From positions 64,001 to 128,000 of IMG/VR virus record IMGVR_UViG_3300018080_000099: a DNA stretch of 64,000 bases, one strand, 5' to 3'. The position numbers were made by a program, and so were the translations under genes. Positions 43,894 to 45,294 of this stretch are shown here, piece after piece. The notes below the pieces were generated by a model. The model saw nothing but the letters and a program-made list of their open reading frames with translations. It ran no database searches and had not been told where the DNA came from. Positions within the stretch are counted from its first letter, which is position 1, and every line of letters starts with the position of its first letter. Source of the DNA: a virus.

Positions 43894-45294
43894 TTACAGA
43901 AACATTTTTCTGAATTGCTTGAAGTCTACGTTCTCACCCAATGAGAATTTCAACTTCGGGTTAATATTCACTCCCAGCTCACACAGGAAGTTTCTACATA
44001 ACAGGACTGGGGACCTGTCGCTTCTGTTATCCAATGTGAAAGGAACATTACTAAAAGTCTTTCCATCGAACTCTACATCAAAGTCAACCAATACCCGGTC
44101 TTCTGTATAATCTTGAAGTCCACCCTTCTTTATCTCAAGGATGTCCTTAATTTTCTTCACTACCTTGTTTCCAAAGACTTCAAAGGAAACAACGTCATCA
44201 ATGATTTTTATGTTGTCGGCATGGAGTACATTATATAGTCCATTACCAGTATCGGCTTTGGCATCCAACTTCATTCCATGAATCTCAGGGAATGTCATCT
44301 TCTCCATGAAGCCAATCTCATTACTTTTGGCGGGCCAGTTGCTCTTATCGCAAATGCTGTCAAACAGATATTGCATTGCGTTCACGCCGGTTGCCTTCAA
44401 CATTCCGAGGAAGCCCGGCAGAGCATTGACCTCTATCACATACGGCAAGTCATCCACAACCATGTGGTCTACACCGCAGTAATAGGAACCAACTATTTTA
44501 GCAGCGTCAAGCGCAACCTTTTTTTCCAACTCACTGAGTTTGTAAGGCTCCACTTCACCACCGAGAGAAAAGTTGCTTCGGAAGTCACCGTCAATACGGT
44601 TCCTTCTCATTGAAGCTATAATCTTGCCCTTGACTATAAATGTTCTCACATCATAATCGCTGTCAAGATACTCTTGTATCAACAGCTTAGCTTTGTACTT
44701 CCAAAGTGTTTGCAAGACTCCTGCCAATGATTCGATGGAGTCTATGCGACTTACGCCGATACCATGACTTCCTCTCATTGTCTTTAGGACAATCGGGAAC
44801 TTGCCACCGATGGATTTCAAGGCGGCTGGTATAGCTTTGGCATTTGGTATCAGCGCCGTTCTTGGCACCGGGATTCCACTGGACTGCAATTTCACAGTTG
44901 TATTGTACTTGTCAGCACACAGTTCAATGACTTCCTTACTCGTCACGATAAATGCTCCCTTAGCCTCAAAGTATGTCAAGAGTGCCAAGGCAACAGGGTC
45001 GTGTATACAAGAGCCTCTGATAAGAACCACAGTATTCTCAGGGTCGAGTTCTATGTTCTTCTCAGGCTCTTTGACGTTTCTAATTACAATGTTAGGGTTG
45101 CCTTTATCAAAGTCCGAAATGTAATTTGAGCCCGGTACTAAAACTGGGAAGAATGGCATGTCTCTTTTTAAGCACTCTTCCTTTATCTTTCTAGCCGCCG
45201 GATAAAGATGCTCAGCGTCTTTCGGATTGTTCTCAGTTATAACGATAACATTGATGTTAGAGCTGTCCTGACTATCGGCAAATTCTCTAAGCAC
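43894..45294 (-). CDS. RimK-like ATP-grasp ligase fused to a retropepsin-like (Zn_protease-family) domain
   Basis: LKTMRGSHGIGVSRID and DFRSNFSLGGEVEPY ATP-grasp blocks; C-terminal AKADTGNGLYNVLHADNI aspartic-protease-like block. Confidence 0.65.
   Translation of the reverse strand: MLREFADSQDSSNINVIVITENNPKDAEHLYPAARKIKEECLKRDMPFFPVLVPGSNYISDFDKGNPNIVIRNVKEPEKNIELDPENTVVLIRGSCIHDPVALALLTYFEAKGAFIVTSKEVIELCADKYNTTVKLQSSGIPVPRTALIPNAKAIPAALKSIGGKFPIVLKTMRGSHGIGVSRIDSIESLAGVLQTLWKYKAKLLIQEYLDSDYDVRTFIVKGKIIASMRRNRIDGDFRSNFSLGGEVEPYKLSELEKKVALDAAKIVGSYYCGVDHMVVDDLPYVIEVNALPGFLGMLKATGVNAMQYLFDSICDKSNWPAKSNEIGFMEKMTFPEIHGMKLDAKADTGNGLYNVLHADNIKIIDDVVSFEVFGNKVVKKIKDILEIKKGGLQDYTEDRVLVDFDVEFDGKTFSNVPFTLDNRSDRSPVLLCRNFLCELGVNINPKLKFSLGENVDFKQFRKMFL

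Follow-up and report, generated by a model that had tools for sequence, protein, structure and literature searches.

RimK and RimB of Pseudomonas (RimABK; PMC4741518, PMC7343187, PMC10092738, PMC11957791), two separate proteins, have the same two folds and predicted activities as the single phage protein described here. RpsF polyglutamate is trimmed by RimB, which also stimulates RimK (PMC11957791), and S6 glutamylation in Pseudomonas reprograms which mRNAs the ribosomes translate. A natural RimB-RimK hybrid, RimBK of Desulfotalea psychrophila (DP2392/Q6AKK4; PMC11957791), is also a single-chain fusion of similar overall size and is proteolytically active, as shown on polyglutamylated RpsF (PMC11957791). 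A putative phage RimK with a C-terminal DUF785 domain was found in marine metagenomes by Monier, Claverie & Ogata in 2008 (PMC2530865), and the same RimK-then-PF05618 order in a viral setting is present in gp5 of Pelagibacter phage Mosig and gp066 of Yersinia phage YerA41. RloA and RloC of the rlo operon of Pseudomonas (PMC12239564; PDB 9g58, 9g59) likewise represent a retropepsin-like peptidase, polyglutamate-cleaving in RloA, that is paired with an ATP-grasp protein. The cyanophage 'ribosomal protein S6 glutaminyl transferases' (PHROG 2599; S-RIM8, S-CAM8, and S-RIM12) are also phage RimK-family ATP-grasp proteins, but their match to the protein described here spans the ATP-grasp domain only (45-49% of the query) and thus gives no evidence of a protease domain in these genes. 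LysX/ArgX-LysW, MptN, and CofF have in common with the phage protein the ATP-grasp subfamily and the ligation to a terminal Glu or carboxylate, but these enzymes attach just one residue, the acceptor being a carrier protein or a cofactor, and have no paired polyglutamate endopeptidase.

The window (the 64-kb stretch of viral DNA analysed as a whole, to whose first letter all positions refer) contains an intact ORF of 466 aa on the minus strand at exactly 43894..45294, and all features of this gene given below lie on that strand. The gene is complete, with a GTG start, a TAA stop at 43894-43896, and a Shine-Dalgarno-like AAGGGA (45300..45305) that is evident in the sequence itself and precedes the start by 5 nt. 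Its product is almost certainly one protein that joins a RimK-type ligase and a RimB-type protease, both domains being identified with the same high confidence, and the agreement of the ORF with the sequence blocks quoted below is far beyond chance. An identical protein (P0001) is encoded on a 263,805-bp contig. In total, 308 homologs were identified, 28 of which are full-length proteins with 56-66% identity that start and end in register with the query. A set of 45 aligned homologs shares ~33-66% identity with the query, and the residues of the motifs quoted below are invariant in all 45, except where stated otherwise.

Compared with Pseudomonas RimK and RimB, the phage protein has all of the ligase catalytic residues, the DTG aspartate, and the Lys/Arg substrate channel in common with them. 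However, it is one polypeptide rather than two proteins and is phage-borne, no RimA (EAL) gene is located nearby, the protease motif is DTGN rather than DTGA, and the N-terminal acceptor loop is divergent. In RimBK of D. psychrophila the protease is N-terminal (residues 1-163), whereas in the phage protein it is C-terminal (aa 325-446) and follows the RimK part (aa 12-314); this opposite domain order points to a fusion arrangement different from that of RimBK. The RimK-protease kind of fusion has been known from marine phage DNA since 2008, and the gene at 43894-45294 adds another member to it.

The N-terminal two thirds of the protein are, according to profile and model comparisons, a RimK-family ATP-grasp alpha-L-glutamate ligase. 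This part consists of a pre-ATP-grasp (acceptor-binding) domain (aa ~12-125; 44920..45261), delimited by aligning the family profile with RimK, and a RimK-type ATP-grasp catalytic domain (aa 128-314; 44353..44913), which matches PF08443, the Pfam RimK model, with 126.3 bits against a cutoff of 21 (E=1.5e-36; positions 3-188 of 188). The catalytic domain contains the blocks GSHGIGV (aa 175-181; 44752-44772), DFRSNFSLGG (aa 237-246; 44557-44586), and EVNALPG (44413-44433). The RimK family model TIGR00768 is matched by all 45 family members, and the query scores 168.1 bits against its cutoff of 143.4. The family profile matched the Pseudomonas and E. coli RimK structures with E-values of 1.3e-54 to 2.2e-49, profile positions 32-319 being aligned with RimK residues 12-291, although the identity to the solved RimK structures is only ~24-26%. 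The matches to LysX/ArgX structures (2.8e-31 to 5.4e-28, and 3.9e-13 for the Thermococcus chain 5k2m) and to the best D-Ala-D-Ala ligase (Ddl) structure (5.5e-15) were far weaker. The AlphaFold2 model (pLDDT 85.5) shows the three-domain RimK fold, pre-ATP-grasp domain included, and its top PDB matches by Foldseek are RimK 5zct, 7qys, and 7qyr (target-normalised TM 0.82-0.86).

These results bear out the initial annotation, which had recognised a RimK-like ATP-grasp ligase fused to a retropepsin-like domain in this ORF from the blocks GSHGIGV and DFRSNxxxGG (ligase) and AKADTGNG (protease-like domain), all three of which are present in the intact ORF, and had proposed a search with the Pfam RimK profile. 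As an observation that would speak against this reading, it had named a profile assignment to a clade of unrelated ATP-grasp proteins, for example Ddl; no such assignment resulted, because the RimK profile and structures match far better than Ddl. Several other ATP-grasp families were rejected on profile scores: D-Ala-D-Ala ligase (PF07478, 23.5 bits versus a cutoff of 24; NF002378, 40.8 versus 243; and TIGR01205, 36.7 versus 245.65), glutathione synthetase (NF003573, 53.3 versus 272; and TIGR01380, 44.1 versus 299), and cyanophycin synthetase and PurK, both of which are far under their cutoffs. PF02955 also gives a match (47.7 bits), but on residues for which the RimK match is much stronger.

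The alignment with E. coli RimK places K129, K171, E208, R217, and R239 at the positions of K100, K141, E178, R189, and R211, and N241, D276, E288, and N290 at the positions of N213, D248, E260, and N262. All of these residues are invariant in 45/45 homologs, with the exception of E208, which is aligned in a 7-sequence set only and is replaced by Gln in one of the seven. In RimK, S7, R8, S14, R64, R189, and N262 contact the polyglutamate chain of the acceptor (PMC10092738). Three of these, R64, R189, and N262, are kept in the phage family as the invariant R93, R217, and N290, whereas the loop bearing S7, R8, and S14 is longer and divergent in the query (T20-E-N-N-P24, 45223-45237, continuing to A33), and an Arg is found at the position of R8 in only 11 of the 45 members. 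By analogy with RimK, we infer that the ligase half is specific for glutamate.

The profiles do not single out S6 as the acceptor, because the MptN model outscores the S6-ligase model. The S6-ligase equivalog NF007764 gives 97.8 bits for the query, well under its cutoff of 331 (best E-value in the family, 9.1e-37), and the MptN equivalog gives 142.6 bits, again under its cutoff (350), with a best E-value of 2.3e-48 in the family and matches to all 45 members at E<=1e-25. The higher MptN score, together with the presence in some relatives of a fused cytidylyl/adenylyl-transferase-like domain (PF01467), a hint of nucleotide-cofactor chemistry, would suit a ligase that acts on a small molecule ending in glutamate or a carboxylate, as MptN (methanopterin) and CofF (F420) do, with the protease as the matching hydrolase and a pteroyl- or cofactor-polyglutamate as the candidate substrate. 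We regard such a function as very improbable, since the query misses every equivalog cutoff widely, including those of LysX/ArgX, MptN, and CofF, RimK, a protein-modifying enzyme, stands out as the best match among the solved structures, and members of the family of the fused domain have been shown to cleave alpha-linked polyglutamate, both in peptides and in proteins (PMC11957791; PMC12239564).

The C-terminal third of the protein is separated from the ligase by a short inter-domain linker (aa 315-324; 44323..44352), which was delimited by the AlphaFold2 secondary structure and pLDDT and by alignment. Judged by the family profile and by its predicted fold, this third is a PF05618 retropepsin-like aspartic peptidase domain of the RimB/RloA type (aa 325-446; 43957..44322). 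As a single sequence, the query stays under the PF05618 cutoff (17.1 bits versus 27; E=0.0054), with coverage of profile positions 6-134 of 138, but 35 of the 45 homologs match this model individually. The family profile was aligned end to end, with DTG in register, to RloA2 (9g59; 3.5e-14), Lpg0085/DUF785 (2pma; 1.1e-10), and RloA (9g58; 2.6e-9), and the RloA proteins are the best solved-structure matches for this domain. The model of the domain (pLDDT 85.7), which has the beta-barrel fold of retropepsins, matched 2pma, 9g58, and 9g59 by Foldseek with TM values of 0.80, 0.78, and 0.74, respectively, followed by HIV-1 protease at E~5e-4. The initial annotation had likened the AKADTGNG block (aa 345-352; 44239-44262) to the aspartic-protease-like domain associated with RimK, and PF05618 is indeed the family of RimB, the partner of RimK (PMC11957791); the Pfam Zn_protease (PF05618) search that it had proposed falls short for the query sequence by itself, and the assignment holds through the profile of the family and through the fold prediction. 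The domain is followed by a C-terminal tail (aa 447-466; 43897..43956) with a low-confidence helix; the tail is kept only in the closest clade (ending in FRKMFL).

The predicted catalytic motif is D348-T-G-N351 (DTGN; 44242..44253), as indicated by conservation and by alignment to RloA. D348, G350, and N351 are present in 45/45 homologs and T349 in 44/45. Three putative polyglutamate-contact residues were mapped to RloA by alignment and spacing, D348 itself being mapped to RloA D48: K346, two residues upstream of D348 (RloA K46; 34/45 homologs), R400 (44095-44097; RloA R114; 45/45), and R424 (44023-44025; RloA R137; 44/45). The spacing is the same as in 9g58, with 66 residues from D to R and 23 from R to R. 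The conserved Lys and Arg residues of RloA/RimB have been modelled as holding polyglutamate (PMC12239564). By analogy with these proteins, we infer that the domain would cleave polyglutamate and that the protein would assemble into dimers or tetramers. The RloA proteins differ in that they are secreted, having a signal peptide and a disulfide, and work with RloB, a pseudo-transglutaminase of the membrane; the phage protein has no such features.

DTGA is the typical motif of retropepsins and RloA (PMC12239564), and its replacement by DTGN with an invariant Asn in this family raises the question of whether the C-terminal domain might be inactive as a protease and serve as a polyglutamate- or RimK-binding regulatory module that tunes the ligase, an arrangement compatible with any acceptor and in line with the separate, non-proteolytic effect of RimB on the RimK ATPase (PMC10092738; PMC11957791). 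This appears improbable, given that Asp-Thr-Gly is invariant or nearly so in homologs as divergent as the 45 aligned here, as an active site would be, and that in the natural RimBK hybrid the RimB domain has proteolytic activity (PMC11957791).

Taken as a whole, the protein is best explained, on balance and with modest confidence, as a bifunctional writer and trimmer of polyglutamate with S6 as the most likely acceptor. The polyglutamate chemistry with trimming, which is predicted by analogy with RimK, RimB, and RloA, is likely in its own right. In the ligase half, ATP would activate a terminal carboxylate, to which L-glutamates would be added successively, yielding alpha-linked polyglutamate. 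The protease half would pair with that of a second copy to form a two-aspartate active site, with D348 contributed by each chain, inside a positively charged channel in which polyglutamate would be cut. Having both halves in one chain would fix their stoichiometry at 1:1 and should yield a writer/trimmer of poly-alpha-glutamate that limits itself; as RimB does with RimK, the protease domain might in addition stimulate the ligase. The acceptor is the least certain step. The acidic C-terminus of the host ribosomal protein bS6 would be the likeliest candidate by analogy, a tentative assignment that falls somewhat short of probable, and the phage would then reset the S6 glutamylation of the host ribosome during infection. 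The proposal in the initial annotation that a phage copy could remodel host ribosomes or synthesise a peptide polymer appears reasonable in light of RimK/RimB in Pseudomonas.

Points in favour of the second part of that proposal are that RimK makes free poly-alpha-glutamate, with stimulation by RimB (PMC11957791), that RimK overexpression has RimB-dependent effects independent of ribosome modification (PMC11957791), and that an S6-specific enzyme is favoured neither by the profile models nor by the loop at the N-terminus. The phage protein might mainly make free poly-alpha-L-glutamate and modify no protein, with the fused protease stimulating synthesis and setting the length, and the product might serve as a polyanion (for instance as a counter-ion, as a nucleic-acid mimic, or as a sink for polyamines or cations) or its synthesis as a glutamate/ATP sink. 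No literature precedent was found for a physiological role of such a product in phage infection, and the conservation of the pre-ATP-grasp domain and of R93 (RimK R64) fits a bound acceptor and a growing free chain equally; we consider this alternative unlikely. Likewise unlikely, to a similar degree, is the broader reading in which host S6 is not the target and the fusion produces poly-alpha-glutamate of set length for a purpose specific to the phage, either on a phage or virion protein or as free polyanionic peptides that are packaged or turned against the host.

The neighbours of the gene in the window and in syntenic relatives encode a methylase, HNH endonucleases, DUF488-N3a, and uncharacterised proteins, and the HNH gene downstream probably shares a transcript with the RimK-protease gene. 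Neither rimA, rpsF, nor any other known Rim partner was found in the window or in syntenic relatives, and a tblastn search of the window for an rpsF (S6) homolog gave a best E-value of 6.3. The window also contains 46 tRNAs and genes for an RtcB RNA ligase, a Ro60-like RNA-binding protein, and chaperones. Acidic C-terminal tails were found in only three ORFs of the window, the best being that of Cpn10 (EEPEEGDE), which was rejected as a phage acceptor because its tail is not kept in syntenic relatives. YerA41_065, the 'LysW-like' YerA41_074, and Mosig_00004 were also rejected as acceptors, as they have no acidic C-termini.

These findings bear on the idea that the acceptor is a phage protein (virion or internal) that is glutamylated and trimmed at assembly, or that the enzyme itself is packaged, injected, and active early in infection. 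The YerA41 homolog (g112 / YerA41_066) was detected in purified particles by LC-MS/MS (PMC7354516) and is annotated as a 'structural protein', which speaks for this idea. However, the same particle preparation also held ribonucleotide reductase, dUTPase, polymerases, and helicases (PMC7354516), and the presence of these many replication enzymes suggests that the homolog is likely to be carry-over. Together with the outcome for the three YerA41 and Mosig proteins and for the Cpn10 tail, in a check that covered the 64-kb window of the 264-kb genome, this makes a phage acceptor quite improbable. If polyglutamate were nevertheless made for a phage-specific purpose, the detection of the YerA41 homolog in particles would be significant instead of reflecting carry-over. 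A link to the thymidine hypermodification of YerA41 was also considered and dropped: the paper gives an apparent ~1 kDa oligosaccharide, and neither 'glutam' nor 'peptide' occurs in its text.

Over the full length, the query shows 36% identity to the Mosig protein (over 93%) and 30% to that of YerA41 (over 90% of the query), and it belongs to a distinct clade of ~465-aa proteins that are 56-66% identical to it. Its gene adjoins methylase and HNH genes in a ~264-kb tRNA-rich phage rather than a T4-like regA/DNA-polymerase module. During infection, the YerA41 homolog shows middle-phase expression (PMC7354516). If the function proposed above is right, a jumbo phage has all that is needed to write and trim polyglutamate tails in a module of one protein, and, as the modification reprograms mRNA choice in Pseudomonas, the phage could tune host translation post-transcriptionally. 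Isolated phages with homologs, namely YerA41 on Yersinia ruckeri and Mosig on Pelagibacter, make the function experimentally approachable. Enterobacterales are reported to be strongly represented among the bacteria that have rimK but no rimB (PMC11957791); if this holds for Y. ruckeri, YerA41 would supply a trimming activity that is absent from its host.

Searches for further fusions gave the following results. The BFVD viral fold library contained no close full-length match to the two-domain protein; the ATP-grasp and PF05618-like parts occur there only as proteins of their own. Two distant relatives with an apparently N-terminal placement of the domain (P0222 and P0225) were rejected as RimBK-type fusions because they have no RimK domain. 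A pattern-limited search of 185,579 species genomes with a tighter marine-clade alignment gave only 4 MAG contigs, in all of which the RimK part precedes the RimB part; copies that have diverged, like those reported from haloarchaea in 2008, would escape such a search. The database names of homologs, such as 'glutathione synthetase' and 'structural protein', do not reflect the fusion, and the present analysis corrects these annotations for the Mosig and YerA41 homologs.

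The open reading frame proposed in the initial annotation spans 43894-45294 (minus strand) and specifies a protein of 466 aa, with a GTG start preceded by a Shine-Dalgarno-like AAGGGA site and a TAA stop; the three sequence blocks quoted for it were found at aa 175-181 (GSHGIGV), 237-246 (DFRSNFSLGG), and 345-352 (AKADTGNG). An identical protein is encoded on a 263,805-bp metagenomic contig, 28 full-length homologs (~465 aa) with 56-66% identity share its start and end, and a wider set of homologs (450-490 aa) shows 33-40% identity across the whole length. These matches mark it as a real gene under selection.

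The ligase half (aa ~12-314) is matched by the Pfam RimK profile (PF08443) at aa 128-314 (E=1.5e-36, the whole profile being covered), and the protein passes the NCBIfam model TIGR00768 ('RimK family alpha-L-glutamate ligase'; 168.1 bits, cutoff 143.4), which also matches 45 of the 45 aligned family members. A family profile matched the Pseudomonas and E. coli RimK crystal-structure sequences over positions 32-319, including the pre-ATP-grasp domain, with E values of 1.3e-54 to 2.2e-49, versus 2.8e-31 to 5.4e-28 for LysX/ArgX and 5.5e-15 for the best D-Ala-D-Ala ligase. The best PDB matches of the AlphaFold2 model (mean pLDDT 85.5) are the RimK structures 5zct, 7qys, and 7qyr (target-normalised TM 0.82-0.86). 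In the alignment with E. coli RimK, the ATP-grasp catalytic and nucleotide-binding residues are all kept (K129, K171, E208, R217, R239, N241, D276, E288, and N290). Three P. aeruginosa RimK residues contact bound pentaglutamate (PMC10092738), and their equivalents, R93, R217, and N290, are all conserved. R93 and the listed residues other than E208 are invariant in 45/45 homologs; the conservation of E208 was checked in a seven-sequence alignment only, in which one sequence has Gln. On profile, predicted fold, and residues, the protein is thus assigned to the RimK family, as the initial annotation had it, and the same evidence argues against an unrelated ATP-grasp clade such as the D-Ala-D-Ala ligases.

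None of the acceptor-specific equivalog models was reached: the scores were 97.8 against a cutoff of 331 for S6 ligase, 142.6 against 350 for MptN, 124 against 275.6 for LysX, and 83.5 against 300 for CofF, and the MptN model consistently outscores the S6 model across family members. In addition, the N-terminal loop (T20-E-N-N-P...) is longer than, and divergent from, the S7-R8...S14 loop of RimK, which holds part of the acceptor chain (PMC10092738). For these two reasons the ligase assignment is confined to the family level, and by its sequence score the protein cannot be filed as an S6-ligase equivalog.

The protease half (aa ~325-446) falls in PF05618 ('Zn_protease', formerly DUF785), the family of RimB, a retropepsin-like aspartic endopeptidase that trims RpsF polyglutamate tails, stimulates RimK, and uses D31 of its DTG motif as the catalytic residue (PMC11957791). 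The match of aa 317-466 alone to PF05618 spans profile positions 6-134 of 138 but stays below the cutoff (E=0.0054; 17.1 bits against 27); 35 of 45 homologs are matched individually. The weak match becomes firm when family information is added: a profile built from 26 C-terminal domains aligns over the full length with three PF05618 proteins of solved structure, namely P. aeruginosa RloA2 (9g59, E=3.5e-14), Legionella Lpg0085 (2pma, 1.1e-10), and P. fluorescens RloA (9g58, 2.6e-9), with the DTG, '...RPV...', and 'L-x-D-R' blocks in register. The AlphaFold2 model of this domain (pLDDT 85.7) is closest to the same three structures (TM 0.74-0.80), followed by HIV-1 protease. Family profile, motif, and predicted fold therefore place the protein in the PF05618/RimB-RloA family and bear out the retropepsin-like domain suspected at AKADTGNG.

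RloA enzymes also cut polyglutamate, and their conserved K46, R114, and R137 make modelled contacts with glutamate side chains (PMC12239564). Their counterparts in the window protein are K346, R400, and R424, as judged from the alignment and from the spacing, which is identical in 9g58. Among the 45 family members, D348, G350, and R400 never vary, T349 and R424 hardly do, and K346 occurs in 34. Retropepsins and RloA carry Ala after DTG, whereas Asn is invariant at this position (DTGN) throughout the present family. That the C-terminal domain is non-catalytic and regulatory is considered very unlikely.

The domain order, RimK first and protease second, is the reverse of that in the experimentally characterised RimBK hybrid of Desulfotalea psychrophila, whose protease is N-terminal (residues 1-163; PMC11957791), and for that reason the protein is not a RimBK as defined. 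An exhaustive search of representative proteins with the C-terminal domain profile returned 3,397 of them at E<=1e-3 and 711 at E<=1e-10. Among the best 150 matches, in proteins of at least 300 aa, the domain mostly follows ~300 residues (52 C-terminal, 13 internal), and in the N-terminal placements sampled a RimK domain was absent altogether. When 185,579 species genomes were scanned with a pattern for the marine subtype, only four loci emerged, all on MAG contigs and all in the RimK-first order, and five viral contigs in IMG/VR have a match at 36% identity. The full architecture is present in Pelagibacter phage Mosig (36% identity over 93% of the protein) and in Yersinia phages YerA41 and GN1 (30% over 90%); cyanophage 'S6 glutaminyl transferase' genes align with the ligase part only. 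Database annotations miss this architecture: the Mosig homolog (MT647606, 4938-6323) is a 'putative glutathione synthetase', and those of YerA41 (MW570730, 4857-6278, with a eukaryotic glutathione-synthetase note) and GN1 are 'structural protein', which leaves the homologs in these isolated phages unrecognised. The architecture itself is not new in phage DNA. In 2008, Monier, Claverie and Ogata reported rimK genes, putatively from phages, in metagenomes of the ocean; several of these had DUF785/PF05618 on the carboxy-terminal side, and the paper also noted a C-terminal DUF785 in haloarchaeal RimK and an N-terminal one in some bacteria (PMC2530865). Given that report and the homologs in isolated phages, the kind is already known; the present protein is of value as an intact and clean case from a jumbo phage with a translation theme, and because it points to a putative phage function.

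The closest known systems in mode of action are RimK plus RimB and the RimBK hybrid. By analogy, the best-supported reading is that the ligase half would use ATP to build alpha-linked polyglutamate on a terminal carboxylate, and that the fused protease half would dimerise and cut the polyglutamate in a cationic channel. A single chain would deliver both activities at 1:1, giving a self-limiting writer and trimmer, and the ligase may in addition be activated by the protease domain, as RimK is by RimB. Because it is fused to a polyglutamate-specific endopeptidase, the ligase would be expected to make chains rather than add a single capping residue like MptN, CofF, or LysX. The most likely acceptor by analogy is host bS6, which is the least secure step since the equivalog cutoffs were missed and the acceptor loop is divergent. 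Synthesis of free poly-alpha-glutamate is rather unlikely. A phage or virion protein as acceptor is improbable: candidates with acidic tails were searched for and not supported, and although the YerA41 homolog, a middle-expressed gene, was detected in purified particles, this evidence is weak because the particles also yielded ribonucleotide reductase, dUTPase, and numerous further replication enzymes (PMC7354516). Extra modules (CTP_transf_like, DUF6267, or DUF3140) in some relatives hint at a link of part of the family to nucleotide or cofactor chemistry and hence at a small-molecule acceptor, which nevertheless seems most improbable. The relatives carrying them are P0048, P0219, and P0259; one of 714 aa has a cytidylyl/adenylyl-transferase-like domain at its N-terminus, one of 1325 aa has DUF6267 and CTP_transf_like, and one of 1202 aa has a C-terminal DUF3140.

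The window is part of a large (jumbo) phage. The immediate neighbours, all on the minus strand and syntenic in related contigs, are an N6/N4 DNA methylase (45762-46697) adjoining a DUF488-N3a protein (46901-47245), a pairing kept in relatives, a small ORF (45336-45701), an HNH endonuclease (43237-43878; HNH_5, E=1e-17), whose strong ribosome-binding site and ATG lie 15 nt past the fusion gene's stop, and two adjacent uncharacterised proteins. Neither rimA nor rpsF, nor any further Rim partner, was present in the neighbourhood or the window, and synteny therefore gives no clue to the acceptor. The small ORF (121 aa) has an HNH-like motif by eye and no Pfam match; its presence in related contig L013 and absence from L014 suggest mobile insertions around the fusion gene. 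The two uncharacterised ORFs (40863-42182 and 42169-43197; 439 and 342 aa) keep their place downstream of the fusion gene in related contigs. They are weakly paralogous to each other (24% identity over 177 aa, E=1e-8) and match nothing in Pfam or PHROG, and the former contains a Pro/Glu/Lys-rich low-complexity stretch.

Upstream on the same strand lies an array of 46 tRNA genes (47442-63912). tRNAs are normally about 76 nt, and several here are unusually long (among others 50015-50108, 50348-50437, 54314-54403, and 63290-63380): Cys 94, Gln 90, Asp 90, Asn 91, Met 84, Ile 86, Pro 88, Gly 83, and Trp 83 nt, which suggests introns or insertions. A Cpn10/GroES gene inside the array (48883-49197, minus strand) encodes an acidic C-terminal extension (...EEPEEGDE) that its orthologs in related contigs lack; both here and in the relatives, an HSP20 gene is close by. 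An RNA-repair and quality-control set comprises an RtcB-type tRNA-splicing/repair ligase (30860-32209, plus strand; phrog_1075, E=1.4e-122), a Ro60/TROVE-like RNA-binding protein (36988-38460, minus strand; phrog_850, DUF2828/DUF7788 in relatives), and an NMN-adenylyltransferase-like protein (8903-9880, plus strand; phrog_3462). Away from the fusion gene are a second DNA methyltransferase (27721-28659, plus strand) and radical-SAM ORFs (16179-17060, 19666-20559, and 57812-59131). Outside the array, a tRNA bearing the CUA anticodon (34202-34278, plus strand) is an amber suppressor labelled Pyl by ARAGORN; long ORFs end in TAG least often (7, against 30 TAA and 29 TGA), and the two features could mean that TAG is partly reassigned, or suppressed, late in infection.
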